Part shown: one piece after another, positions 3,111 through 24,769 of the stretch
How positions within the stretch are numbered: the first letter of the stretch is position 1
Layout: each line of letters starts with the position of its first letter
From: Polyangia bacterium
Lineage (GTDB): Bacteria; Myxococcota_A; Polyangia; Fen-1088
DNA length: 33,286 nucleotides
Assembly (NCBI GenBank): GCA_035546895.1
Contig: DASZVW010000179.1
Span: forward strand, 1 to 33,286
Reading direction: 5' to 3'
Translations under genes and position numbers: made by a program
Notes under the pieces: generated by a model
The model's input: only the letters and a program-made list of their open reading frames with translations
What the model was told of the DNA's origin: nothing
The model's database searches: none

Positions 3111-3154
3111 GGAGTTATCGAGATCGGGCCCGAAAAAGGGACCTGAATTCGAAC
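3111..3154 (+). repeat. Conserved 44-nt intergenic motif, copy A
   Basis: GGAGTTATCGAGATCGGGCCCGAAAAAGGGACCTGAATTCGAAC. It matches copy B at 34/44 positions without gaps, and its first 13 nt are identical to copy D. It lies upstream of the recombinase gene on the minus strand and 77 nt upstream of the plus-strand ORF at 3231. Confidence 0.7.
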
Positions 3155-3784: not shown

Positions 3785-4129
3785 CTAGTGGCGCCGTGTA
3801 ACTAGAGCCTGCACCACGCCGACGAGGGCAACGAGTACCGCAGTCGCGACCTTCCCCCAGTCAATTCGGCTCCAGAGCGACGCCGGGCGCTTTCGGCGTC
3901 GGTGGGTACCCGGCGGTACCACGAGCGGAACGACCGCGTGGCCTCTCAATCGCTCGAGGATTCGCATCTGCATCCTCGAAATTTGCCGGAGACCCACGCC
4001 CCAAAGAAGAGGCGGATCCAGGATGACTTTGGGGGGGGCTATTCTCGAAGCGAGAAGAGCGGGGTCTATTCTCGCGACAGCCTCAGCTATGGCGCCGTTG
4101 CTGCACTTGCCGACGGAACGCGTAGCCAT
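3785..4129 (-). CDS. Possible small tail-anchored membrane protein (start uncertain; ATG 3973 or 3967 more likely)
   Basis: The ORF ends in a basic stretch plus a hydrophobic helix (RRRKRPASLWSRIDWGKVATAVLVALVGVVQALV). The N-terminal part overlaps the 3' end of the 4087-4965 ORF, and a G8 tract sits at 4031-4038. Confidence 0.25.
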   Translation of the reverse strand: MATRSVGKCSNGAIAEAVARIDPALLASRIAPPKVILDPPLLWGVGLRQISRMQMRILERLRGHAVVPLVVPPGTHRRRKRPASLWSRIDWGKVATAVLVALVGVVQALVTRRH

Positions 4130-4965
4130 ATGAACCGATCCCGAGCGCCTTCTCTGCGGAGCGAGGCGGGTATTTCGGAGAATTCTCGAGCTGTGATGAA
4201 TTGGTTCTGCTCCGATGACTCTCTCCCCCTCCGGTGCACGTCCTCAAGCTGCAGCTCGGTGTAGGGTGGGCCATCGCCAATCCAAAACATGTCGATCACC
4301 TTCGACGCACACTTCATCGCCTCCAGTTTCTTGAGGCCGTGCCTTCGCAGTAGCTCGGTCGCGAAGTAGAGAAAGGCGCCACGTCCGGGCCGCTGCCGAC
4401 TCGCGTATTTCGGATAGTAGGCCCGCGGTAAAAGCATTCGCTGCGGCTTCTGCTGCCCGGGGCCCCACACGGTCCCGCAACTCGTGCACTGACGTGAACC
4501 GCTCTCGAACGGCGGCACTGAAAATCCCTTCGCCGTCGCGGCCTCCATGATCACCTTGTTCTGTCTATCAGCCTCCGGCGCCGGCTCCAGTAGCTCGTGA
4601 TCGCACGTCCTATCGACTGCGTCCCGGAGCCGGTGCAGTCGGGTTGTGAACTGCAACAGCTCGTCCCTAAGCTCGCTCCACGGCCAGAAGGTATGCTCCG
4701 TCGGTTCATTCGCGCCCAGAAACTCGCTGATTTCCTGCAAGTCGAAGATGGCTTTTCGCAGATATTCGTTCAGCGCTTCGGGCACGGGGGTCCAGAGCGT
4801 GGCACTGTCGGCGAGCTCCTCATATGCGCCCTCGTCGAGCCCCGGCAAAGCGTCACGAATCCTGCTCTCGACCTCACATACCTCGATGGCCTCGAACTCC
4901 GGGCGTTTCGGTCGGAAGTATATGGCGGTGGCACCGTCAGCTCTCGTGAACGTACGGTCGTCCAT
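4087..4965 (-). CDS. Hypothetical protein (orphan cargo gene)
   Basis: 292-codon ORF with a balanced, protein-like composition (many D/E/K/F/Y/W), unlike the R/P/A-rich shadow ORFs nearby. It lies in a visibly lower-GC stretch. No family was recognised. Confidence 0.6.
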   Translation of the reverse strand: MDDRTFTRADGATAIYFRPKRPEFEAIEVCEVESRIRDALPGLDEGAYEELADSATLWTPVPEALNEYLRKAIFDLQEISEFLGANEPTEHTFWPWSELRDELLQFTTRLHRLRDAVDRTCDHELLEPAPEADRQNKVIMEAATAKGFSVPPFESGSRQCTSCGTVWGPGQQKPQRMLLPRAYYPKYASRQRPGRGAFLYFATELLRRHGLKKLEAMKCASKVIDMFWIGDGPPYTELQLEDVHRRGRESSEQNQFITAREFSEIPASLRREGARDRFIWLRVPSASAATAP

Positions 4966-5179
4966 GTAGCGCGATCGTACACCGGTCGAGGAACTCCATG
5001 GTGCCCCGGTCGACCCTGGCGAAGGGACATCAAGCTCCCGTTGGCAGTTGACCGGCCTGGGCGACCACCCGATGTTACCCCGCGACTAGACCTCTCGCCG
5101 CGGCCCACGTCGGGCGTAGCAGCGATCGATACCTCCATCCGCGTGCAATCGACTACGATAGGACATCGCGGAGAGCACG

Positions 5180-7711
5180 ATGTCGGGGCGTGACGACTTC
5201 ACAAAACCTGTGGCGCGGAAATTGGCAACCCGCGCCGGCAACCGCTGCTCGAATCCAGATTGCCGTCGAGACACGAGTGGGCCCGCGTCGACAGTAGACG
5301 GGACCATGAATGTAGGCGTAGCTGCGCACATAACCGCCGCGGCCGAGGGTGGTCCGCGCTTCGATCCTGAGCTGAGCCCCACTGACCGCTCGTCTATCTC
5401 GAACGGCATTTGGCTCTGTCGGTGGTGCGGCACGCTGATCGACAGCGACGAGTCGCGATTCACCAAAGCAGTACTGTTGGCGTGGAGAACTTCAGCGGAG
5501 GCGCTCGCGCGCTCCCGCCTCGATACTCCCGCCCGCCCGGAAGGTCCTGACGAGCCACTTCTGCGCTTGCCCGATTCTGATCCCTCGGTGTCCTGGCTCA
5601 CCTTTTCTTCCCGCGCGACCACGTTCGTGGGGCGAGACGACGAGCGGGCTCGGTTGGCGACCTTCTTGAGAGAAGATCGGAAGGTCTCGTGGTGGCTCAT
5701 GACCGGACCTGCCGGTGCGGGCAAAAGTCGGCTCGCGCTGGAGGTCTGCCGTCAAACACAGCCGGAGTGGGCTGCTGGTTTCCTAAGCCGGACCGACGCG
5801 TTTCGGCGTTGGTCCCATTTTCGTCCCGCCCGACCCACGTTGATCGTAGTGGACTACGTCGCAAGCCGAGTCGCCGAGGCAAGTGGTGTGGTTCAAGAAC
5901 TGGTACGCGCAGCTCCGCACCTTCCCCACCCTGTGCGTGTTCTGCTTCTTGAGCGCGAGCAGGGATCATGGTGGCCGAGATTCCTTCGAGAGGATAGCCA
6001 GAGCGAGTGCGCGGAGCTCCTTGAAGCAGAACACGACGAACCGCTGCGTCTCGGGCCCCTCGCGTCGACGGCACTCCGATCGATAGCGGAGGATGTGGCG
6101 CGATTGGAAAGTAGGTCCTGGTCAGAGACATCCGGACAAGCATTCGATTCGCGGATGCGAATCGTGGACCCGCTCGGGCGCCCGCTGTTTGGAATGATCG
6201 CGGCTGCGTACCCCGGGAACGACATGGTCCACGGCATCGCCGATTCGGACGTTCTGAGACTTGTCTTGAAAAAGGAAGCGGCCCGACGAGTACAGATATT
6301 GCCGGACCAGGAACAGCGACAGAGGATCGAACAGCTGATGACCCTCGCCACAATGGTCGGCGGCCTTCTCCCTAGATCTGACGGCTTTGCGTTTCTTTCG
6401 GCGACAGACGTTGGACCGCTGCTTCCCGTGCCGGACCTCATCGAGCCGCGTGTGTACCGCGACGCGGTTGCCGCGACAAATGCGGACCCAGCTCTTGCCG
6501 GGTTGCAACCGGATATCTTGGGAGAGCGCTTCGTCCTCGATCGCTTAACCGCTGGAGACGGCTCTCACTTCGCCGCGCGGAAGCTCTTGGTCGTAGGCTG
6601 GAAGATTCAGCCGGACGACGTTTGTGACTTCGTGGTGCGAACAGCGTCCGATTTCCCGGGCGATCCAGGCCTTGAAGTGCTCTGCGCGTTGCCGACGGAC
6701 TCGCCGCTAGCGCGAAGTCGATGGGGACGCCTGGTGGCTGATCTCATACGCGTGGCCAATCGGAGCACTGACCCGATGACGGGCCGCCTGCTCTCAGCAC
6801 TGCGCGAGCTCGTTCGGAAACATTCAGATGAGGAACACGTTGCGCGAGCGCTCGCGTTGGCCGAGCTGTACCTTGGCAACATATTCCTCTTCGCCGAGGA
6901 GAACTACTCCGAGGCTCAGTCGCGGTTCGAAGCGGCGATCGCTCTCGCTCGTGGCGCTTCTGACATCGTCGCGGCGGCAGTCAATAACCGTGGGATCGTC
7001 TACCACCTCATCGAGAACGAGGATAAGGCGTTTGCCGACTGGAGTGACGTGATTTCGGCTTCGATGATTTCCGATGAAGCGCGCGCGTGTGCGCTGAACA
7101 ACCGCGCAGACGTGTTTGGACGCCGTGGCCTTCATGAGCAATCGATCGCCGATCGTGCCGCGGTGCTTGCTCTGCGTGAGACATCTGCCGATCGCCGCTA
7201 TATCGCCCTGATTAGGCGTAGCAGGTCATACGTTCAGCTCGGTCGAAGCGGCGATGCTCTTGACGACCTGGGAATGATCCTCCGCACCGACGATATTTCG
7301 CCCCAGCAGAAAGCCGAAGCTCATGTTCTTCGGGGGGCGCTGCTAAGGGACCTTGGACACCTTGACGATGCCAGACAGGATTTGGACTCTGTGCTCGCCG
7401 AGGAGGATTTGTTCTATGGAACGTATCCTGAAGCGCTCGTTGAACTCGGCGAACTTGCGCGGCTCACCGGTGATGTTGAACGGGCGCGCGAGTACCTTGA
7501 TGCTGCTTCTGCTTCGGTTGACGCGAGAGGCGATACACTCGCTGAAGCGCTGATAGTAAGGGCGCGCCTTCTGACGGACGAGGGCGACGCTGCGGCTGCC
7601 GAAAGCATATGGCAGCGCGTACGTACCGATCCAGCTGCGACGCCTCGACAGGCATTGATCGCGTCGAATCGGGATGTACCGGCGCGGCTCAGCCACCCGA
7701 TAGGTGTCTAG
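5180..7711 (+). CDS. HNH-like nuclease / STAND P-loop NTPase / TPR three-domain protein (Avs-like antiviral STAND candidate)
   Basis: ATG at 5180 follows GGAGAG. The N-terminus has an HNH-type motif (CSNPDC ... VAAHITAAAEGGPRFD ... SNGIWLCRWCGTLIDSD). Walker A is LMTGPAGAGKSRLALEV (nt ~5702-5728) and Walker B-like is TLIVVDYV. The C-terminal ~300 aa show TPR-like repeats (AELYLGNIFL..YSEAQSRFEAAIAL, NNRGIVY, NNRADVF and others). Confidence 0.85.
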   Translation: MSGRDDFTKPVARKLATRAGNRCSNPDCRRDTSGPASTVDGTMNVGVAAHITAAAEGGPRFDPELSPTDRSSISNGIWLCRWCGTLIDSDESRFTKAVLLAWRTSAEALARSRLDTPARPEGPDEPLLRLPDSDPSVSWLTFSSRATTFVGRDDERARLATFLREDRKVSWWLMTGPAGAGKSRLALEVCRQTQPEWAAGFLSRTDAFRRWSHFRPARPTLIVVDYVASRVAEASGVVQELVRAAPHLPHPVRVLLLEREQGSWWPRFLREDSQSECAELLEAEHDEPLRLGPLASTALRSIAEDVARLESRSWSETSGQAFDSRMRIVDPLGRPLFGMIAAAYPGNDMVHGIADSDVLRLVLKKEAARRVQILPDQEQRQRIEQLMTLATMVGGLLPRSDGFAFLSATDVGPLLPVPDLIEPRVYRDAVAATNADPALAGLQPDILGERFVLDRLTAGDGSHFAARKLLVVGWKIQPDDVCDFVVRTASDFPGDPGLEVLCALPTDSPLARSRWGRLVADLIRVANRSTDPMTGRLLSALRELVRKHSDEEHVARALALAELYLGNIFLFAEENYSEAQSRFEAAIALARGASDIVAAAVNNRGIVYHLIENEDKAFADWSDVISASMISDEARACALNNRADVFGRRGLHEQSIADRAAVLALRETSADRRYIALIRRSRSYVQLGRSGDALDDLGMILRTDDISPQQKAEAHVLRGALLRDLGHLDDARQDLDSVLAEEDLFYGTYPEALVELGELARLTGDVERAREYLDAASASVDARGDTLAEALIVRARLLTDEGDAAAAESIWQRVRTDPAATPRQALIASNRDVPARLSHPIGV

Positions 7712-7712
7712 A

Positions 7713-8750
7713 TCACCCCCTCCCTCGACCATCACACTCACTCACTCGCTTCCCCCAGACCTGCCGTCCCGTGACGGGATGGAAGTTGATCCGCGCGCGA
7801 TCTCCCCGAAGAGCGATAGACCTGGCGTCGTAGGCCTCAGCGGCGGCGCGTTCCTTCGGAAAGATCCCGAGCGCTGTGTTCCGCCCGTTGTGCGCAATCT
7901 GTGCGCGCCAGCCGCCTTGCCGTGAGTCCCACGAGACCCCGATGTAGCGGCTCGACTTGGCCAGCTTTCCCTCCTTCCTCGCTTCGCTCACGATGGCAGC
8001 CGCGTCTGCCGGCGCGGCCCGCTCTCGCGGAAAGTTCAGCACCGGCGCATCACCAAGGTAGTAGCGGGCTGCGCGGTCGTACGCTCGAGCGGCATCCTTC
8101 TCGGTCGCCCAGGTGCCGAGGTGCATGCGGCGTCGGCCTGGGACCCCTATCTGTGCCGTCCAGGGTCGCCAAGAGTCTCGTGCGACGAGGAAGACCCCCC
8201 GGTACCTGCTGGTGAGCGTATCGGAGGCGCGTGAGTCCCTCGCGGCCGTCCGTAGGTCTGCGGGTGAGGCGGGCGCTAGCCGCCGGCGCGGAAAGTTCAG
8301 ATGAGTTCGGTCAGCTCGCAGGAAGACCGCCGCCCGATCGTGCGCCTCTGCCGCCTCCTTTTCACTCCTCCAATGTCCGAGGTGGATTCGGTCATCGCCA
8401 GCGTGGATCTGTGCCCGCCACCACGGGGAGGCAGCGTCAACACCTCGAAAACGGCTTGTCGCTGAGAGCTTCGATAGCTGCCTAGCCTCGTTCTGCAGGG
8501 CGCTCGCGTCCGCGGGTACCAAGCGCCTTCGGGGGAAGTTCCGCGGGGCGTCCGGCCCTCGATAATGTAGGGCAGCGCGGTCGTACGCCTGCGCGGCCTC
8601 AAGCTCCGTGCTCCAGGCACCGAGGGATGCACGCCCAGAACCGGCGAGTCTGATCTGAGCGGTCCAGCTCCGGGCTCGATTCTTAAGGCGATGAACGCCT
8701 AGGAACCTGCTCGCTTTCGGAGCTTCTGACCGGGGCGCACCCGGCGTCAC
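7713..8750 (-). CDS. Protein composed of four tandem AP2/ERF-type DNA-binding domains
   Basis: Four repeats start at residues S14, S99, S181 and S267. Each fits S-R-[FY]-x-G-V ... W-x-A-Q-I ... L-G-x-[WF] ... E-x-A-A-x-A-[YH]-D-x-A ... N-F-P, the bacterial AP2 signature. The stop at 7713-7715 lies 1 nt from the stop of the convergent STAND gene. Confidence 0.85.
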   Translation of the reverse strand: MTPGAPRSEAPKASRFLGVHRLKNRARSWTAQIRLAGSGRASLGAWSTELEAAQAYDRAALHYRGPDAPRNFPRRRLVPADASALQNEARQLSKLSATSRFRGVDAASPWWRAQIHAGDDRIHLGHWRSEKEAAEAHDRAAVFLRADRTHLNFPRRRLAPASPADLRTAARDSRASDTLTSRYRGVFLVARDSWRPWTAQIGVPGRRRMHLGTWATEKDAARAYDRAARYYLGDAPVLNFPRERAAPADAAAIVSEARKEGKLAKSSRYIGVSWDSRQGGWRAQIAHNGRNTALGIFPKERAAAEAYDARSIALRGDRARINFHPVTGRQVWGKRVSECDGRGRG

Positions 8751-8826
8751 CGTTCGATGCCTCGATCCATCGACCGCTTCTAATCCCCGCGGCCAGAGAA
8801 GAGATCAGCCTTCACGTTGGAGTTCC

Positions 8827-9375
8827 CTAGGAGTCCTTCGCGGCCGAGAGAAATGCCGCCAGATCCTTCACCGCCTTCATCGCTTCGTTCCATCTCTCCG
8901 TTCGCCCGCCCGACTGCCACCGCGTAGCGACATTCTCAGCGACCTTCTTCACGCTAGAGATCGTGTCAATCCCGGCTTCCATCTTTAGGTCGTGGGTGAT
9001 TACGCTGATAATTCTATCCTCAGCGTCGTTCAAGTAGAACCCAGCCATCCAATAGGAGGAGCGTCGCTCTTGTTCGTAGTTGACGCGGTTGTGTTGAATC
9101 AGTTCGTCGAGTATTCGCTCTCCGTGTTGGACTTGGATCTTGCCGTCGCGATCGGTCTCCGCCGCGATTTCCGCGCTCTGTTGGATCAGCGGAATCGCTC
9201 GCCACAGAGCAAAGCCTGCCCCAACAAGGCGATTCCAGGCGTACCCCCGGGAGCGAAGATTCTTGGACCATGTGTTTTCTGCGCGCTCGCTGAGAGCACG
9301 CAAGTCTACAAGCACGTTTGAAATCTCCGCTCGTTGAACGATGACTCTTCGATCGCTTTCGGGACTGTAGGCCAT
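8827..9375 (-). CDS. Hypothetical protein (orphan, noticeably lower GC)
   Basis: 182-codon ORF with ATG at 9375 and a balanced, helical-looking composition. No family was recognised. Confidence 0.65.
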   Translation of the reverse strand: MAYSPESDRRVIVQRAEISNVLVDLRALSERAENTWSKNLRSRGYAWNRLVGAGFALWRAIPLIQQSAEIAAETDRDGKIQVQHGERILDELIQHNRVNYEQERRSSYWMAGFYLNDAEDRIISVITHDLKMEAGIDTISSVKKVAENVATRWQSGGRTERWNEAMKAVKDLAAFLSAAKDS

Positions 9376-9437
9376 CGGAGGAGTCTAGCGACTCTCGCCA
9401 CTCTCGGCATCCCGTATTAGCCCGTATCGAAAGCGGT

Positions 9438-9465
9438 TTGACCAGCGGAGAGCCTACGGTAGGGT
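9438..9465 (+). promoter_or_regulatory. Candidate sigma70-type promoter (TTGACC-16 nt-TAGGGT), 9 nt before ATG 9475
   Basis: TTGACC at 9438-9443 and TAGGGT at 9460-9465. No SD-like sequence lies between the -10 and the ATG, so the mRNA could be leaderless or short-leader. Confidence 0.3.
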
Positions 9466-9474
9466 GCGGACTTC

Positions 9475-9855
9475 ATGAGTACTGTCGAGACCCTGGTTGA
9501 AGAGTTCACGAGCCGCCTCGGAGCTCTCTTGGAGAGCCAGACCCTTGAGCGCGCCCGGCTTGCGGTTGCTAGCGCTTTCGGTGGTGGGCGACTCGGACGT
9601 CCTCCGAAGCTATCGGGAGCCGCTTTCGGCGGGACATCCAGAAAGAGACCCCCGAGACAACTGTGTCCCGTTCCGGGCTGTAAGAACCCGGCCGCGCCGA
9701 TCTTTGGGATGGTGTGCGCCGAGCACAAGGACGTCGCGAAGGCGAAGATCAAGAAGTACCGAGAGGCCCGCCGCGCCGCGAAGCTAGGACCAAGCAAATC
9801 GAAGTCGGCACGGGCCGGGGCGAAGAAGAAGAACCGTTCGATCCCACGCAGCTAA
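9475..9855 (+). CDS. Small basic protein with a CCCH knuckle and a Lys/Arg-rich tail (possible DNA-binding protein)
   Basis: ATG at 9475. The motif is QLCPVPGCKNPAAPIFGMVCAEHK, followed by KAKIKKYREARRAAKLGPSKSKSARAGAKKKNRS. Confidence 0.6.
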   Translation: MSTVETLVEEFTSRLGALLESQTLERARLAVASAFGGGRLGRPPKLSGAAFGGTSRKRPPRQLCPVPGCKNPAAPIFGMVCAEHKDVAKAKIKKYREARRAAKLGPSKSKSARAGAKKKNRSIPRS

Positions 9856-9870
9856 CCTACCTCGTACCTC

Positions 9871-11925
9871 TCACGATGGTCTTCCGGCGTTGCGGCGCCG
9901 TCGCCGATGCCTGGTGTGCTGCTGGTCGGCGTCCTGAGTGAAGGAACAGGTCGGGTAGTTCGAGCAGGCCCAGAAGGCACCGCTCTTCCCGGGGCGCTTT
10001 CGGAGCGAGCCGCTACAGCCTGGCGAGCGGCAGGGTCGAATCTCGACGGCAGGGAGATTCAGCGGCCCCGCGCTCTTGGCCCGGGCGACGAGCTCGCCGA
10101 GCTGCTTTCGGACGGCGTGAAGGAATCCGTCGAGCGGAGCCTGGCCGTCCTGGACCTTTCGAAGTGTCGACTCCCAGAGCGCGGTCATGTCCGGCTGCGT
10201 GGCGACGGACGGAAGAGATCGGATGAGCGCCCGCGCCGTCGGTGTCGAGTAAATCTGGCGCTTGTTCTCTTCGACGTACTTGCGATCGAACAGGCGCTGG
10301 ATGATCGCTGCTTGTGTCGCTGGTGTTCCTATCCCGTCGGTCTCGCGGAGAAGAGCCTTGATCCGAGGGTCCGAAACGTACCGAGCGATTCCGGTCATCG
10401 CCTGGACGAGGCTAGCGGCCGTGAATCTACGCGGTGGCTTCGTCTTCTTGGCAACGATGCGCGTCTGGGCGACGCGCAGGACCTGCCCACGTTGGAGGGG
10501 CGGAATGGGAGAGTGGGGGTCGACATCGTTCTCTGCGGCTGGAGCGTCGGGATCATTTCCGCCGCCCTGCTCATCATCCGTGAGAGCCTCATAAAGGCGG
10601 CGCCACCCCGGAGCAATCGGCTGACGGCCGGTGGCGATGAGGCGTTCTCCAGCGACGATGAGTTCTGCCTCGAGCTGGTGGTACTCGAAGGGTGGACAAA
10701 ATTGCGCGAGGTAGCGTCGAGCGATGAGGTCGTAGACAGCGAGCTCGTCTTTCGACAGCCCTCCCGACTTCTCGGGTCGCGGAGTCGGAATGATCGCGTG
10801 GTGAGCCGTGACTTTCGCGTCGCTCCACGCCTTCGAACGAATCGAAACGTCCGCCGCGGCGGCCGCGGCAGCGATCTGAGGGTCGACGACGGCGATCGCC
10901 CGGACGACATCGGTCGCCTGGGCGAGGTGGCCTTCCGGCAAATGGGAGCAATCCGAGCGGGGGTAAGTGACGAGACGGTGCGTTTCGTAAAGCGCCTGGC
11001 AGACGTCGAGGACGGTCTTGGGATTGAGCCCCAGCTTGCGACCTGCGTCGATCTGGAGGTCCGACAGCGAGTACGGCAGCGGGGCGGCCTCGGACTTCTT
11101 CTCGCGGGTCGCCTTCACCACCGTAGCCGGTTGGCCCGCGATCTTGCGGTCGATGGCGCCGGCAACGGCGCTGCTCACGAGCCGCCTCTCATCGTCGAGG
11201 GCCGAGTCGGCCGCCGGGCCCGGCCGCCAGCTGGCAGCGAAGGGATGGGCGGCGCCGGCGACGTCGGCGACGATCGAGAAGTAAGGCTTCGCGACGAAGT
11301 TCTCGATTTCGAGGTCGCGCCGGACGATCAGACCGAGGAGGGGCGTCTGCACGCGGCCGACGGAGAGGACGCCGTCCTGATAGCCGGCTTGTCGGCCGAG
11401 GACGGTGTAGAGCCTGGTCATGTTGATGCCGTACATCCAGTCGGCGCGCTGGCGGCCGAGCGCGGCGTCGTAGAGGGAGCGGAAGTTGGAGTTGGGCTGG
11501 AGGGCGCCGAGGGCCTTGCGTACCGCACTCGGATTGAGGTCGCTGATGAGGATGCGCTCCACCCGCCCGCGAAAGCCGAGGTATTGGAGGACCTCGTCGA
11601 CGAGCAGTTGGCCCTCGCGGTCCGGGTCGCCGGCGTTGACCACGACGTCGACGCGAGGGAGGAGGGCCTTGATGGTCTTGAGCAAGTCGGGCGTCTTGAC
11701 GGCGAGCTTCCATTCGGTCGGCGTGATCGGAAGGTGCTCGAGCTGCCAGCTCTTGAAAGCAGGGTCGTAGGCGTCTGCCTCCGCGAGCTCGAGGATGTGG
11801 CCTGCGCACCAAGCGACCAGGTCGGCTCCGCATTCGATGTAGTTGTCGCGACGCTGTGGCTGCGGAAGGACGTCAGCGATCGCGCGGGCGAGGGACGGCT
11901 TCTCGGCGACGAAGAGACGGCGCAT
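9871..11925 (-). CDS. topB: DNA topoisomerase III
   Basis: ATG at 11925 follows GGAG. It has a Toprim N-terminus (MRRLFVAEKPSLARAIA ... NAGDPDREGQLLVDEV), an active-site Tyr region (HRLVTYPRSDC) and a C-terminal zinc ribbon (CRSPGCSGSL ... FWACSNYPTCSF). Confidence 0.95.
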   Translation of the reverse strand: MRRLFVAEKPSLARAIADVLPQPQRRDNYIECGADLVAWCAGHILELAEADAYDPAFKSWQLEHLPITPTEWKLAVKTPDLLKTIKALLPRVDVVVNAGDPDREGQLLVDEVLQYLGFRGRVERILISDLNPSAVRKALGALQPNSNFRSLYDAALGRQRADWMYGINMTRLYTVLGRQAGYQDGVLSVGRVQTPLLGLIVRRDLEIENFVAKPYFSIVADVAGAAHPFAASWRPGPAADSALDDERRLVSSAVAGAIDRKIAGQPATVVKATREKKSEAAPLPYSLSDLQIDAGRKLGLNPKTVLDVCQALYETHRLVTYPRSDCSHLPEGHLAQATDVVRAIAVVDPQIAAAAAAADVSIRSKAWSDAKVTAHHAIIPTPRPEKSGGLSKDELAVYDLIARRYLAQFCPPFEYHQLEAELIVAGERLIATGRQPIAPGWRRLYEALTDDEQGGGNDPDAPAAENDVDPHSPIPPLQRGQVLRVAQTRIVAKKTKPPRRFTAASLVQAMTGIARYVSDPRIKALLRETDGIGTPATQAAIIQRLFDRKYVEENKRQIYSTPTARALIRSLPSVATQPDMTALWESTLRKVQDGQAPLDGFLHAVRKQLGELVARAKSAGPLNLPAVEIRPCRSPGCSGSLRKRPGKSGAFWACSNYPTCSFTQDADQQHTRHRRRRRNAGRPS

Positions 11926-12027
11926 TGGTCAGGACTCCAGTGGTTGGTCAATCAGGTTGTCGAAGAGTTCGAATGCGCGTTCGATGACGGACGGTGGGAG
12001 GCCTTGGGTTGTTGGAACCGCGCCGGA

Positions 12028-12777
12028 TCAGTTGAGGCGGATGGCGCCCTCGGCCAGGGCCCGGCGACTGAAGGTCGGATGCGACGCGACTGGGAAGGAG
12101 GTACCGTCGAACACCCGGACGCTCTCGGAGTGGACGCGCGACAACAGACGGACTTGGCCGTCGCTCCAGTTCTCCAGGTGGTGATAGAGAAGTCCCCTGA
12201 CCTCGGCGGTGGCGCCTACGCAGAGGGCCGGCTCGAGCGCGTCGCCCCAGAAGACGACGTCATGGGTTGCCGGGAAAGGAGAGCGGGTCGAAACGGTGAC
12301 CCGGGGGAGGCCGTCGTCGTTCTCGATCGCGATGACCTTCCCGACCAGGTGGATCTGGTTTTGGGCATAGGTTTCGAGCTTGGGAGGAGGGCAGTCGTGC
12401 GGCCGCTCGAGCTCGGGAAGCGCCAGGACGCGCGCGAATATCTGGCGCGCCGTGGGCGCGGGGTGGATCACTGTCGCGCTGCGAACGGAAATCTTGGCGA
12501 TGCGCTGGTAGAGGTCTCGTCGCGCGCGACTGTTCACCAGGAGGGGACCGTCGACGCGCACGGCGGCGCCGTCGCGAATGGTCTTCGCGAGCTGCGATGC
12601 CGTCTCGCCGACAGCGATGCAGCGCTGTCTATCAGCGATGTCACGGCCGGGATTGAACTCGGCGGTGGTGTTCAAGTAGAACTTGAGCACAGGCCGACCG
12701 ACTCGGTTGAGTTCGAGTTCGAGTATCTCGTCGACGATTCCGGCGATGGTGGCGCAGTTGGCGTGTACGGGCTTCAT
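12028..12777 (-). CDS. Hypothetical protein with two SSB-like OB-fold halves
   Basis: ATG at 12777 follows GAGGAG. Both halves follow the SSB-type pattern (NCATIAGIVDE...VLKFYLNT...CIAVGETASQLAKTIRDGAAVRVDGPLLVNS and QIHLVGKVIAIEND...VVFWGDALEPALCVGATAEVRGLLYHH). There is no acidic C-terminal tip. Confidence 0.6.
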   Translation of the reverse strand: MKPVHANCATIAGIVDEILELELNRVGRPVLKFYLNTTAEFNPGRDIADRQRCIAVGETASQLAKTIRDGAAVRVDGPLLVNSRARRDLYQRIAKISVRSATVIHPAPTARQIFARVLALPELERPHDCPPPKLETYAQNQIHLVGKVIAIENDDGLPRVTVSTRSPFPATHDVVFWGDALEPALCVGATAEVRGLLYHHLENWSDGQVRLLSRVHSESVRVFDGTSFPVASHPTFSRRALAEGAIRLN

Positions 12778-12861
12778 GACTTGATGCTCCTCGGATGGGT
12801 GTGAAGGGTGGGAATGGGCAAGAAGAGAGCCGGGCGCGGTCAGCCCGCGCCCGGCGGTGTG

Positions 12862-13626
12862 TCACATGCCGCGTTCGACGCTCTTGCCGCGCTGGCGGCC
12901 GCGCGCGCGAGCTGGCGGGGGCGGCGTGGCCGGCTCGCGCTCGGGTGCCTTGGCCTGCTCCGACGCCTGCTGCCGCTCCTGGGTGCGCTCGAGGACCTGG
13001 AACTGCCGGCAGTCGATGCCGGACAGGCGGCGCTCGACGCCCTCGGGGCCTGGGATGCTCTTGTGGCGGACGGAGCCGTTCACGGAGATCGTGTCGCCGG
13101 CGCTGATCTCCTTGAGCGCGAGCTCGCCGGTCTTGCCCCACATGGTGACGTTGTGCCAGTCGTCGCGCTCCTTGCCGTTCTGGACGGTCGTCGTCGCGAC
13201 GCTGACGGCAGTGAGGGTCGCGCCGCTCTGGAGGGTCTTCTGCTCGACGCTCCGAACGACACCGATGAGCTGGGCCTCGTTCATCGAGGTGAAGTTCTCG
13301 ATGGCGGGGGCAGCCGAGTCGATGTGCAGCTCCAGGACGCGGTGTTTGGCCCCGTCCTTCTCGTAGCTGTTGACCCGGAGCGATCCGGTGAGGCTGACGC
13401 CCTTGCCCTTGTCGAAGTCGGCGGCGACCTTCTCGGCCATATCGCCCCAGGCGACTGCGCGAGTCCATTGGGTGTCCTCGCGGATGTTTCCGCCCCGGTC
13501 GGTGTAGCGCTCCGAGGTGGCAATGTTGAGACGGGCGAATTTCACGCCCTCACTGGTCTCGCCGAGCTCCGGTTTCTGGCCGAGGCGGCCGACGAGGGTT
13601 GCGGTGCTGATGTGTTCACGGTTCAT
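12862..13626 (-). CDS. ssb: Single-stranded DNA-binding protein with two tandem OB folds
   Basis: ATG at 13626 follows AAGGAGA. OB1 is ATLVGRLGQKPELGET..GVKFARLNIATSERY...TQWTRAVAWGDMAEKVAADFDKGKGVSLTGSLRVNSYEKDG. OB2 is QLIGVVRSVEQK...DDWHNVTMWGKTGELALKEISAGDTISVNGSVRHK. The tail is basic and Pro-rich rather than the usual acidic tip. Confidence 0.85.
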   Translation of the reverse strand: MNREHISTATLVGRLGQKPELGETSEGVKFARLNIATSERYTDRGGNIREDTQWTRAVAWGDMAEKVAADFDKGKGVSLTGSLRVNSYEKDGAKHRVLELHIDSAAPAIENFTSMNEAQLIGVVRSVEQKTLQSGATLTAVSVATTTVQNGKERDDWHNVTMWGKTGELALKEISAGDTISVNGSVRHKSIPGPEGVERRLSGIDCRQFQVLERTQERQQASEQAKAPEREPATPPPPARARGRQRGKSVERGM

Positions 13627-13684
13627 GGTGGTCTCCTTGCTGGTGGTGGGGAACAGGTGCGTGGCAAAAGCGGGGGCGCTACGG

Positions 13685-14107
13685 TCAGCGGCGGGCGAGC
13701 AGAGGCGCGATGTCGACGCCGAGGCAGAGGAGCGCGTCGTTGACGTCCTCGTGCGAGTAACCGTCGTCGATCAGAGCGACGAGCTCCGGCGCGAGCCGCA
13801 TGACGAGGCCCCAGGTGTTCAGGACCGGGGTGACGCCGCGGTAGCGGGCGAGTGCCCTCAGCTTCTTGGAGATCTTTTCCGCGTCCGCGATGGAGTAAGC
13901 CGGCTGGGCGCGGGCCTCGGCCAGAGTGACGGTAGTACCGAGCGACCCCTCGTCGATCGCTCGGCCGAGAATCCGCGCCAACAGCGCCCCCGCGAGCCGG
14001 ACGGAGTCGATGCAGTCCGACAGGTGGTGAACTTCAGGAAGGCGCTCCGAGAGCTTGCCGACATGCTCGTCGAGCTCCTTTGAAAACACGGAGTCGGCGG
14101 ACTTCAT
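13685..14107 (-). CDS. Hypothetical protein, translationally coupled to trbI
   Basis: ATG at 14107 overlaps the trbI stop as ATGA, and AAGGAGG lies upstream. No family was recognised. Confidence 0.6.
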   Translation of the reverse strand: MKSADSVFSKELDEHVGKLSERLPEVHHLSDCIDSVRLAGALLARILGRAIDEGSLGTTVTLAEARAQPAYSIADAEKISKKLRALARYRGVTPVLNTWGLVMRLAPELVALIDDGYSHEDVNDALLCLGVDIAPLLARR

Positions 14108-15549
14108 CGGGGACCTCCTTGGTTGGTGTAGGGCGGGAAGACGATGTCCTTGGTGACGATGACGTTGACGCTGTAGCCAGCGCGGACGGTGATGGTTGGT
14201 TGAATGGCGAGGTTCTTCTGCGTGATCTGCTGGCCCGCCGTGTTGACCGCGCCGCCGGCGTTGGCGGCCCAGCCCTGGGCGATCGTGGGCTGGTACCCGC
14301 TTGGGTTGCCGGCCGCGCGCTCAGCGGTGGCAGAGAGCAAGGTGCCGAGCGCGACGCCGGTGATGATTCGCCACCAGTGGTGGTTGACCTCGTCGGCGAT
14401 GCCGGAGGCCCCAGCGAGGTCGGCTCCTGGCATGCACTCGAGGGAGATCGAGATGCCATCCGGCCTGATGACGCGGTTCCAGCAGAGAAGAACGCGCTCC
14501 TGGCCGTAGGAGACCGCCGAGTCGTACGTGGCCAGGAGCTTCGACCCCTGCGGGATGATCAGGTAGTTGCCGGAGACCGTGTCGTACACGTTCTCTCGGA
14601 CCTGGCCGATGATGGTGCCTGGCAGATCGCTGTTGATGGGCGTGAGAAGCGTCGTCGGGATGATGGTGCCGGCCTTCACCTCGAAGGGGCTCCTGGGCAT
14701 GATGACGGGCTGGTTGAGATAGGTCGCGGTGTTGACGCCGTCGCGCGCGAGGAAGTCCGACTTGTGCTGCTGCATGTTCGGATCACCAGTGCCAGCGCCT
14801 CCGAGCGGGAGCTGTTGCGGCGAGTCCGCTTTCGCGGTGCCGGGAGCGCCGGTGCCGGCGAGGAGAGCCGCGGCGGCGTTGGCGGCCGCGCCGCCTAGGG
14901 TGTCGGTGCCAGAGCCCTCGATGTCGACGAGAATCGACGAGCCGACGGCCTTCTGCCGCTCGTCGCGGATCGTCTCGCGCAAAGAGGAGTGGCCGAATGA
15001 ACCGGCGCCGCGGCGCTCGGCTGTCGGTGCTTGATCGTCTGGAAGATCGGCACCGTGCAGGGGCTTGCCGAGCTTCGGGGGCTGGGGGTGGAGATCGGCG
15101 TTGTTGCCGGGAGCGTTCTCGACGGCCTCGGGGATGGGGACGCCCTTGGTCTGGCTGTCGGTGTCGGGCGCGGTGGCGGCGTGGGCTTGTTGAGAGCGGG
15201 GCGAGAAGGCAACCGCGGCCGCGAGTAGGACGGCGGCCGTGAGAGCCCCGCCGATGAGCAGAATTGGACCGCGGCGGAGGCTGCGGGCCTGGGGCTTCTC
15301 GAGCTGCAGGCCGGGGTGATCAGGTGGAAGCCGGGTAGCGTAAGTCATCTGGGTAGGCGGTTCCCCGTCCGCGCGCAGCTCGTCGCCGGCGTCGCCCGCG
15401 CCTCGAGCGCCCGTGTTCTCAGCGATGAGGTCGGGGTGCGCCTCGTGGCCCGGCGCCTGCGGAAGCGGGCGGAGGGGAACCGGCACGTCGCGGCTGCCGG
15501 TGTGCTCCAAGTCCGGCGGGAACATCGTGCGTGTTGTCGTGTCGTCCAT
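14104..15549 (-). CDS. trbI: Conjugal transfer protein TrbI (VirB10 family)
   Basis: ATG at 15549 follows GAGGAG. It has a Pro-rich N-terminus, one TM segment, and the conserved core GTIIPTTLLTPINSDLPGTIIGQVRENVYDTVSGNYLIIPQGSKLLATYDS...GQERVLLCWNRVIRPDG...DEVNHHW. Confidence 0.9.
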   Translation of the reverse strand: MDDTTTRTMFPPDLEHTGSRDVPVPLRPLPQAPGHEAHPDLIAENTGARGAGDAGDELRADGEPPTQMTYATRLPPDHPGLQLEKPQARSLRRGPILLIGGALTAAVLLAAAVAFSPRSQQAHAATAPDTDSQTKGVPIPEAVENAPGNNADLHPQPPKLGKPLHGADLPDDQAPTAERRGAGSFGHSSLRETIRDERQKAVGSSILVDIEGSGTDTLGGAAANAAAALLAGTGAPGTAKADSPQQLPLGGAGTGDPNMQQHKSDFLARDGVNTATYLNQPVIMPRSPFEVKAGTIIPTTLLTPINSDLPGTIIGQVRENVYDTVSGNYLIIPQGSKLLATYDSAVSYGQERVLLCWNRVIRPDGISISLECMPGADLAGASGIADEVNHHWWRIITGVALGTLLSATAERAAGNPSGYQPTIAQGWAANAGGAVNTAGQQITQKNLAIQPTITVRAGYSVNVIVTKDIVFPPYTNQGGPR

Positions 15550-17274: not shown

Positions 17275-17318
17275 CGAGTTGTCGAAAGGAGCCCCGAAAA
17301 AGGGACCTAAAATCGGAC
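17275..17318 (+). repeat. Conserved 44-nt intergenic motif, copy B
   Basis: CGAGTTGTCGAAAGGAGCCCCGAAAAAGGGACCTAAAATCGGAC. It fills nearly the whole gap between the trbL stop (17319) and the trbF start (17268), with 6 nt between the motif and the ATG. Confidence 0.7.
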
Positions 17319-18455: not shown

Positions 18456-18499
18456 CTGGTTGTCGAGAGCAGGGGCGAAAAAGTGTCCTAGAAAGCGCC
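18456..18499 (+). repeat. Conserved 44-nt intergenic motif, copy C (more diverged)
   Basis: CTGGTTGTCGAGAGCAGGGGCGAAAAAGTGTCCTAGAAAGCGCC. It aligns to copies A and B without gaps. It lies 6 nt from the trbL ATG, the same spacing as copy B has to trbF, and similarity continues to the start codon (minus strand: TCGACAACCAGGGTGCGATG versus TCGACAACTCGGGCGTGATG). Confidence 0.6.
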
Positions 18500-24725: not shown

Positions 24726-24769
24726 GGAGTTATCGAGACGAGGCCTAAAAATCGGACCTACTTTTTTCG
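24726..24769 (+). repeat. Conserved 44-nt intergenic motif, copy D
   Basis: GGAGTTATCGAGACGAGGCCTAAAAATCGGACCTACTTTTTTCG. The first 13 nt are identical to copy A, and 27 of the first 34 positions match A without gaps. It lies 21 nt upstream (minus strand) of the ssb ATG at 24704, at the head of the ssb-trbCDEJ block. Confidence 0.65.

Follow-up and report, generated by a model that had tools for sequence, protein, structure and literature searches.

The 345-aa protein encoded by a minus-strand open reading frame (ORF; 7713-8750, GTG start) of a Polyangia contig consists of four tandem AP2 units and is probably a stand-alone, nuclease-free regulator that binds DNA sequence-specifically and is encoded by an integrative and conjugative element (ICE). 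The stretch analysed, here called the window, is the whole contig C179 (33,286 nt) of a metagenome-assembled genome (MAG) that is 79.6% complete. The AP2 fold and its role in DNA binding are already known; new here are the four-unit architecture without a nuclease as a widespread mobile-element family and the position of this family on its elements. Full-text searches of the literature, with incomplete coverage, turned up no account of tandem-AP2 proteins in bacteria or of an ICE-encoded AP2 protein, and their one useful result was the preprint on the phage repressors CasPR (bioRxiv 10.64898/2026.02.23.707548).

Four AP2 units make up the whole protein

The gene and its parts were assigned with a hidden Markov model (HMM) of the family, Pfam and an AlphaFold2 (AF2) model:

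7713..8750, minus strand: four-AP2 gene, GTG at 8750, stop codon 7713-7715
8529..8711, minus strand: AP2 unit 1 (aa 14-74), family HMM; AF2 strands 19-21, 29-35 and 39-46, helix 49-64
8463..8507, minus strand: linker helix 1 (aa 82-96), AF2 helix after the conserved NFPxRRLxPA motif
8286..8456, minus strand: AP2 unit 2 (aa 99-155), AF2 strands 104-107, 110-117 and 120-127, helix 130-143
8220..8264, minus strand: linker helix 2 (aa 163-177), AF2
8025..8210, minus strand: AP2 unit 3 (aa 181-242), family HMM; Pfam E 1.5e-6, profile match 8052-8210
7956..8003, minus strand: linker helix 3 (aa 250-265), AF2
7776..7952, minus strand: AP2 unit 4 (aa 267-325), Pfam best stretch aa 267-315, E 9e-8, match 7806-7952
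7716..7775, minus strand: C-terminal tail (aa 326-345), family-conserved NFHPxTGxxVWGxR

Pfam finds AP2 (PF00847) alone in the 345 residues, with 63.8 bits against a cut-off of 33.3 (E 1.8e-17) and over three stretches. When the units are scanned singly, all of them stay below the cut-off (13.5-32.7 bits), with E-values of 1.3e-3, 0.09, 1.5e-6 and 9e-8 for units 1-4 and no other family found. The pairwise identity among the units is 38-51%, and units 1 and 2 align clearly to units 3 and 4. Unit 2, the weakest by Pfam, is still 46-47% identical to units 1 and 3, and unit 3 is aligned by phmmer to WRI1, ERF096 and AtERF1. Residues 14, 99, 181 and 267 are the first of each unit, and the spacings of 85, 82 and 86 aa agree with the preliminary description of the window, in which four units ~82-86 aa apart account for nearly the whole protein.

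All units follow the pattern SR[FY]xGV...W.AQI...LG.W.TE..AA.AYDRAA...NFP, and each then has RRLxPA and a short helix. SR[FY]xGV and the strand-2 Trp are kept in all units, and the other contact positions vary. Conserved helical linkers of ~25 aa connect the units (family consensus around linker 1: NFPxxRLxPADxxTLRxEAR), and the protein contains no other domain. In the C-terminal tail P325, G328, G333 and R335 are almost invariant, and AF2 predicts a strand at 330-335 and a short helix at 336-339. The protein is very basic, with an isoelectric point (pI) of 11.4, 54 Arg and one Cys.

The AF2 model, built with 40 homologues in the alignment, reaches a mean predicted local distance difference test (pLDDT) of 89.6 and shows three strands and a helix followed by a linker helix, four times over. 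A three-stranded antiparallel sheet on one alpha-helix, the AP2 fold, is therefore present in each of the four units of the model. In a Foldseek search against the PDB all confident matches were AP2/ERF structures, namely WRI1 (7WQ5; E 8e-8, 172 residues), TEM1 (7ET4) and AtERF1 (1GCC; template modelling (TM) score 0.79 normalised to the target, root-mean-square deviation 1.7 A, 38% identity), and phmmer against the PDB sequences returned the same structures. Profile, model and fold search agree with the assignment to AP2 that had been made from the letters of the window. The absence of a catalytic domain likewise held in searches of Pfam, PHROG and PADLOC, where the 'HNH endonuclease' families of PHROG match the protein through the AP2 module only. 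The protein is most likely a sequence-specific binder of double-stranded DNA that would make its contacts through Arg and Trp residues of the sheets.

Comparison with known AP2 proteins and proposed mode of binding

The plant double-AP2 proteins (AP2/ANT/WRI1; 7WQ5) are the best match in both sequence (phmmer E 3.6e-12) and fold, the Foldseek match extending over all 172 residues. In the structure of WRI1 with DNA, two AP2 sheets joined by a helical linker occupy adjacent major grooves of the 14-bp bipartite AW-box, and arginines of the linker contact the DNA backbone (PMC9401623). WRI1 and the four-AP2 protein have in common the tandem units and a helical linker with basic residues, and a conserved RRL motif is found in each linker of the latter. 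By analogy each beta-sheet would enter one major groove, and the WRI1 arrangement would be repeated four times, so that four units could read four successive grooves in a composite site of ~35-45 bp. The footprint of ~40 bp that had been suggested earlier is a fair extrapolation from the AW-box of WRI1 (PMC9401623). The two proteins also differ. The ICE protein has four units instead of two and one linker helix of ~15 aa where WRI1 has a V-shaped pair, and it is bacterial, borne by a mobile element and without activation or disordered regions. The global TM score to WRI1 is low (0.35-0.44) and the relative orientation of the domains is not reproduced.

The single-AP2 ERF/DREB proteins (AtERF1 1GCC, ERF096 5WX9, TEM1 7ET4) share with the units the YRGV-like strand, the Trp and the AAxAYDxAA helix. 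However, the equivalents of the AtERF1 contact positions R150, R162 and W172 are replaced, differently in each unit, and therefore no preference for a GCC-box can be assumed. Since the contact residues differ per unit and per orthologue, the site is expected to be asymmetric, non-repetitive and specific to the element.

CasPRs are AP2-containing anti-CRISPR roadblock repressors, encoded by mobile elements, that bind a 30-bp site inside cas genes and thereby block RNA polymerase (bioRxiv 10.64898/2026.02.23.707548). Like the four-AP2 protein they are encoded by mobile elements, free of a nuclease and multi-module AP2 readers with helical linkers (bioRxiv 10.64898/2026.02.23.707548), and their site of ~30 bp compares with the long site predicted here. 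In contrast to CasPR, the four-AP2 protein lacks a CapR or zinc module (one Cys) and is therefore no CapR-type protein, it has no acr-locus context, AP2 is its sole module in four copies, and both the host phylum and the vehicle differ, with Bacillota phages on one side and an ICE on the other. The HNH-AP2 homing endonucleases of phages and cyanobacteria carry a homologous module (phrog_99, E 8e-33 through the AP2 part), and HNH genes of RB16 and a Klebsiella phage match unit 4 at 44-46% identity. However, these phage proteins have one AP2 module and their matches cover <=26% of the query, whereas the four-AP2 protein has neither an HNH nor another nuclease domain and does not belong to this group. 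The ApiAP2 factors of Apicomplexa are also multi-AP2, sequence-specific transcription factors, but their domains are scattered in very long proteins without a fixed period of ~84 aa, and the fold match is weak (3IGM, E 0.5).

To our knowledge, every stand-alone AP2 protein that has been characterised is a transcription regulator, be it plant AP2/ERF, ApiAP2 or phage CasPR. Therefore, a role as transcription regulator, either repressor or activator, appears most likely for the four-AP2 protein as well.

A large family of tandem AP2 proteins

A word-indexed search returned 499 relatives, nearly all of them metagenomic, and the closest homologues are full-length (74%, then 61-45% identical). The exhaustive search covered 1.84 billion representatives of clusters formed at 50% identity and matched 188 of them at E<=1e-30, 1,791 at E<=1e-10 and 12,448 at E<=1e-3, where the last number includes AP2 proteins in general. 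When the 150 best representatives were scanned with an HMM of the unit, they contained 2-14 units per protein with a mode of four (63/150), and the distance from unit to unit peaked sharply at 80-87 residues.

The invariant positions of the family are structural (Trp, Gly, the AYDRAA helix and NFP), and the strand positions that contact bases in AtERF1 differ between units and between orthologues. Units with the same index in different proteins are somewhat more alike (0.43-0.49) than units with different indices (0.385), and units 3 and 4 keep signatures of their own across orthologues ('rpW...dAArAYDRAA.fY' and 'LG.f...NF.P', respectively). The tetrad has therefore been inherited as a whole and not re-duplicated.

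Some long relatives have the four-unit block fused to arrays of DUF4379 treble-clef zinc fingers (x4 and x11); no fusion to an enzyme or NTPase was found among the ten long relatives scanned. A search of 72,556 plasmid records found no relative. Among phages the only matches are to the single AP2 module of HNH homing endonucleases, and a scan of genome contigs yielded no more than two relatives, both distant and partial, in MAGs of Synechococcus and Thermoflexales.

The family could be read more broadly, with tandem-AP2 arrays as a bacterial class of modular readers of long DNA sites whose logic resembles that of zinc-finger or TALE arrays, and by which conjugative elements would recognise one unique address of ~40 bp, to switch their own transfer genes or to silence genes of the recipient after entry. 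This reading would cover the 2-14 units, the fixed pitch of ~84 aa, the unit-specific contact residues and the fusion of some relatives to zinc-finger arrays; we regard it as a doubtful generalisation. The tandem design with helical linkers might also be a prokaryotic forerunner of the double-AP2 arrangement of plants (WRI1/ANT).

The host element and its distribution

On C179 recA is interrupted by an element with a large serine recombinase; the contig also carries topoisomerase III, three SSB genes and the type IV secretion system (T4SS) genes VirB4, VirB6, VirB8, VirB9 and VirB10. The recA gene (578-1312) is cut at profile position 188 of 262, where the gene of the large serine recombinase (1155-2963) converges. 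The rest of the backbone lies on C831 and C1032, with Toprim, TraF and a relaxase of the MobA/VirD2-DUF3363 type (tblastn to the homologue loci L024 and L012) and with ParA and ParB-like genes, which were identified by reading translations. In a search of the assembly for AP2 genes, the four-AP2 gene was the sole copy. The assembly holds a second, related VirB-type ICE on C689 (about 4200-10430) and C254 (about 3950-7300), whose VirB4, VirB6 and VirB9 are 77%, 76% and 70% identical to those of the window. The two are called ICE1 (window) and ICE2 in the following.

Only one of the 24 other genomes of the same genus (G013) encodes a full-length homologue, 50% identical, which is the patchiness expected of mobile DNA. 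Identity to the window at the related loci L010 and L013 is 44-62% for the T4SS proteins (VirB4 58-62%, VirB6 44%) and 50-56% for the AP2 protein. This similar divergence is consistent with common descent of the AP2 gene and the element. The contigs of the homologues all have 63-68% GC, and the carrier elements form a family of conjugative elements with a VirB-type T4SS and a MobA/VirD2-DUF3363 relaxase, on high-GC DNA that is probably of Myxococcota.

Neighbourhoods of the homologues

The neighbourhoods of 12 homologue loci other than the window were surveyed. T4SS or relaxase genes are present in six of them and likely mobility genes in three more. The location of the gene on an ICE, as in the preliminary description, is well founded, and so is the link of its homologues to conjugative elements, the lack of which would have counted against that description. 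In P0015, P0025, P0037 and the same-genus genome G013 the homologue is next to T4SS genes; the order in P0015 is RadC-DUF6908-AP2-TrbC-VirB3-VirB4-TrbL, and P0037 has RadC and an extracytoplasmic function (ECF) sigma factor in addition to the T4SS. In G013 and one other neighbourhood the AP2 gene stands within the T4SS cluster and is divergent from virB9. P0024 and P0013 contain a DUF3363 relaxase, in one of these together with Toprim and TraF. The probable mobility genes are a VirB11-type ATPase in P0014, DUF6908 in P0010 and a large serine recombinase with AbiEii in P0003; P0030 is a three-unit fragment adjoining insertion sequence genes. Recurrent linkage and comparable divergence identify the gene as a backbone or accessory gene of VirB-type ICEs with a DUF3363 relaxase.

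In the window the neighbour is a gene on the opposite strand:

5180..7711, plus strand: convergent HNH-STAND-TPR gene, 843 aa, context outside the AP2 unit, variable cargo

Its product has an HNH-like head (PADLOC effector/SAVED_HNH models), an AAA_16/nSTAND NTPase domain and TPR repeats, and its stop lies 1 nt from that of the four-AP2 gene, exactly as noted before. However, no STAND gene occurs in any of the 12 homologue neighbourhoods. The cargo adjoining the homologues consists instead of AbiEii, PIN together with a SWI2/SNF2-methylase pair, BREX a few kb off, or a giant protein of RHS/SpvB type (four cases). Because the gene next to the homologues varies and is never STAND, the AP2 gene is a recurrent gene of the backbone edge that delimits a slot for cargo, which in this element is filled by the STAND gene.

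The giant proteins of the four cases (L012 1-7958, L024 1-6493, L025 1-9178 and the contig of P0014) have 3,500-4,200 aa with RHS/YD repeats and SpvB/TcdB_toxin_midN or Kelch/VWA domains, and their genes lie 0.5-3.5 kb from the four-AP2 homologue. This points to a shared hotspot for cargo next to the AP2 gene.

Immediate surroundings of the gene

Two further features lie directly upstream of the four-AP2 gene:

8751..8826, minus strand: 76-nt spacer upstream of the AP2 gene, three TCGA cores with an 8-bp period (8754-8773)
8827..9375, minus strand: 182-aa orphan, context, directly upstream of the AP2 gene on the same strand

The orphan has no match in Pfam, NCBIfam, PADLOC or PHROG and no homologue in any related locus; its co-transcription with the AP2 gene is possible. 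PADLOC has no model that matches the AP2 protein or its orphan neighbours. A GAGG is positioned 9 nt before the GTG start. Scans of 7500-10000 for sigma-70 promoters and terminators found none, and no terminator-like site was found between the AP2 and STAND genes. The three TCGA at an exact 8-bp period (8754-8773) are the sole match of this pattern in the window, with 0.01 expected, where the pattern was chosen post hoc, after sight of the sequence. The spacer is a candidate operator of the AP2 gene; as an autoregulatory site the TCGA pattern was rejected, being post hoc and not conserved upstream of eight orthologues.

The GC content at third codon positions (GC3) of the AP2 gene is 0.71 versus 0.80-0.90 for the T4SS backbone genes. 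The gene belongs to a 3-10 kb stretch with reduced GC3 (0.65-0.72), which also houses the STAND gene and several orphans.

At 9475-9855 (plus strand) the window encodes a basic protein of 126 aa with a CPVPGC...CAEH cysteine motif and no family match. It has four paralogues on other contigs of the assembly, C735, C686, C291 and C1032 (52-64% identical), and one homologue, 57% identical, in the related ICE L013; possibly it is another candidate for a DNA-binding regulator of these elements. When the window is folded as single-stranded DNA (ssDNA), the 200-nt stretch with the strongest structure falls in 12400-12800 (GC-corrected z about -3.7), within the 5' part of a weak SSB-like ORF (12028-12777).

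A 44-nt motif of the element

A 44-nt motif occurs four times in the window:

3111-3154: copy A, ~150 nt upstream of the recombinase start
17275-17318, minus strand: copy B
18456-18499: copy C
24726-24769: copy D

The start codons of virB8, virB6 and ssb follow 6-21 nt after the ends of copies B, C and D. The motif consists of two boxes at fixed spacing, GGWCMC...TTTTT...TCGAYAAC, and has no four-fold internal periodicity of ~11 bp. Searches were made with an nhmmer model of the four copies in the assembly and the related loci, and with the exact pattern in 26 same-genus genomes. The strict two-box pattern GGWCM-N2-TTTT-N12-CGAYAAC has eight copies in the assembly, all on C179, C831, C1032 and C371, and zero copies in a reversed control; the copy on C1032 lies upstream of the relaxase operon. 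In the second ICE the motif positions are occupied by a different conserved box, TTGCCGAGAAGG, with the ATG of virB6, virB8 or ssb 6-8 nt further on.

Near-identical copies were found at six loci of four same-genus genomes: L019 in G018, L018, L021 and L022 in G003 (three copies), L020 in G001 and L023 in G021. An ICE2-type box, GCCGAGAAGG, follows ~70 nt after the motif in five of the six loci, the exception being L023 (G021). At L019, the only annotated locus, the motif heads an integrative mobilisable element of ~4.5 kb (9780-14520) with a 185-aa ORF, a MobA/VirD2-DUF3363 relaxase and a tyrosine integrase; an element of this type may carry promoters matched to both types of helper ICE. Because of its two-box layout and its position 6-21 nt before start codons, the motif resembles a promoter of operons with very short leaders, and one that is shared with small mobilisable elements.

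An ECF sigma factor on the element was rejected as reader of the motif: within the assembly, the sigma factor next to the L013 homologue matches best to C295 and C863 and not to the ICE contigs. At L012 9806 and L025 9950 a conserved stretch with TCGACAAC precedes two four-AP2 orthologues. The downstream box of the 44-nt motif has this same octamer, TCGACAAC, and the stretch may be coding sequence of an upstream gene or a related promoter.

Alternative explanations

It had been proposed that the four-AP2 protein is the master regulator of the element and binds the 44-nt motif with one AP2 unit per ~11 bp. The lengths would fit, four units at one groove each reaching ~40 bp against 44 nt, and in this assembly the motif is confined to the element: C831 and C1032, which carry copies, also hold backbone genes, the AP2 gene is the only one, and the assembled parts of the sister ICE (C689/C254) have neither motif nor AP2 gene. 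This correlation exists only within the assembly, with both in ICE1 and neither in the incompletely assembled ICE2. In the comparative data, motif and protein are decoupled. The motif-bearing genomes G018, G001, G021 and G003 have no four-AP2 homologue, while the motif is absent from G013 and from L010, L011, L013, L024 and L025, all of which have the protein, and L012 combines the protein with another type of box, GCCGAGAACC. None of the repeated non-coding motifs of L010, L011 and L013 resembles the 44-nt motif. The layout near start codons is that of a promoter, and a four-fold internal periodicity of ~11 bp is missing. The genomes with the motif alone are no strict refutation, as small mobilisable elements might copy the regulatory sites of their helper, but binding of the motif by the protein is unlikely. 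A somewhat better, although still small, chance is given to a silencer or establishment factor directed at the host, which after transfer would bind genes of the recipient, e.g., defence loci, and block their transcription. Its precedent is CasPR (bioRxiv 10.64898/2026.02.23.707548), the fusions of four AP2 units to DUF4379 zinc fingers parallel the design of CapR plus AP2, and fast-changing targets would predict the variation of the DNA-contact positions among orthologues. In L010 and on the contig of P0010 the AP2 gene is co-directional with and downstream of DUF6908, and an ssDNA hairpin of ~200 nt precedes DUF6908 or RadC in L010 and L013 (z -7.4/-8.1 and -5.4). It resembles the Frpo-type ssDNA promoters in the leading regions of conjugative plasmids, which likewise fold as long hairpins. 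The hairpin element is repeated, with ~170-200 nt at L010 3700-3910 and 1664-1830 and at L013 8330-8540 (minus strand); the copy upstream of the L010 RadC did not stand out, with a z of -1.4 in the stretch folded. However, the protein of the window lacks a CapR or zinc module, acr-type neighbours are absent, a search upstream of its gene found no comparable hairpin, and the relaxase lies on another contig, so that the direction of transfer is not given by the window.

An architectural DNA-binding factor is quite improbable, whether as accessory protein of the relaxosome and oriT, as partner in integration and excision of the arm-site type, or as a nucleoid-associated protein of the 'stealth' or partition type. 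Tyrosine integrases use AP2-like folds as arm-binding domains (Pfam Integrase_AP2), the protein is multivalent and very basic, and in several elements its gene adjoins relaxase or T4SS genes. On the other hand, the carriers of homologues use differing recombinases, with a serine recombinase here and in P0003, and the tyrosine integrase belongs to the small motif-bearing elements without the protein. No iteron-like repeat array was found near the gene, and C831 already provides ParA and ParB-like genes. Still less credit can be given to the earlier suggestion that the protein senses DNA for, or regulates, the adjacent HNH-STAND-TPR defence protein in a two-gene system, which we consider very improbable. 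The stops 1 nt apart, the common location in the lower-GC3 segment and the lack of a terminator-like site, by which the convergent transcripts could interfere, would agree with such a partnership. But the convergent orientation excludes an operon, neither a STAND nor an NTPase gene is found in the 12 homologue neighbourhoods, whose slot holds unrelated cargo, and PADLOC has no model for the AP2 protein, nor do the ten long relatives have an NTPase domain. Co-occurrence as in a two-gene STAND (Avs-like) system was thus not observed, in a survey that started from AP2 homologues only.

Some observations also weigh against a regulator that belongs to the element. Units 1 and 2 are weak by Pfam when scanned alone, the GC3 of the gene is below that of the backbone and its place is a cargo-like segment, and two of the 12 contexts, P0038 (among housekeeping genes) and P0029, are without a mobility gene. 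No AP2 copy was seen in the assembled parts of the second ICE, and therefore the protein is not essential to every such element. Finally, the role of 'transcription regulator' is itself drawn from analogy.

Implications

Descriptions of AP2 in bacteria concern mainly single modules appended to homing endonucleases and integrases, and lately the CasPR repressors of phages. Here four copies of it form an entire protein, in a large family that seems to be unstudied. The carriers are conjugative elements of high-GC soil bacteria that are poorly cultured, and on them the family sits at the edge of a slot for defence or giant toxin-like genes. A binding site, if found, would make the four-AP2 protein the first regulator for this class of ICE, and it would also test whether AP2 units can be chained, one per groove, into a reader of ~40 bp.

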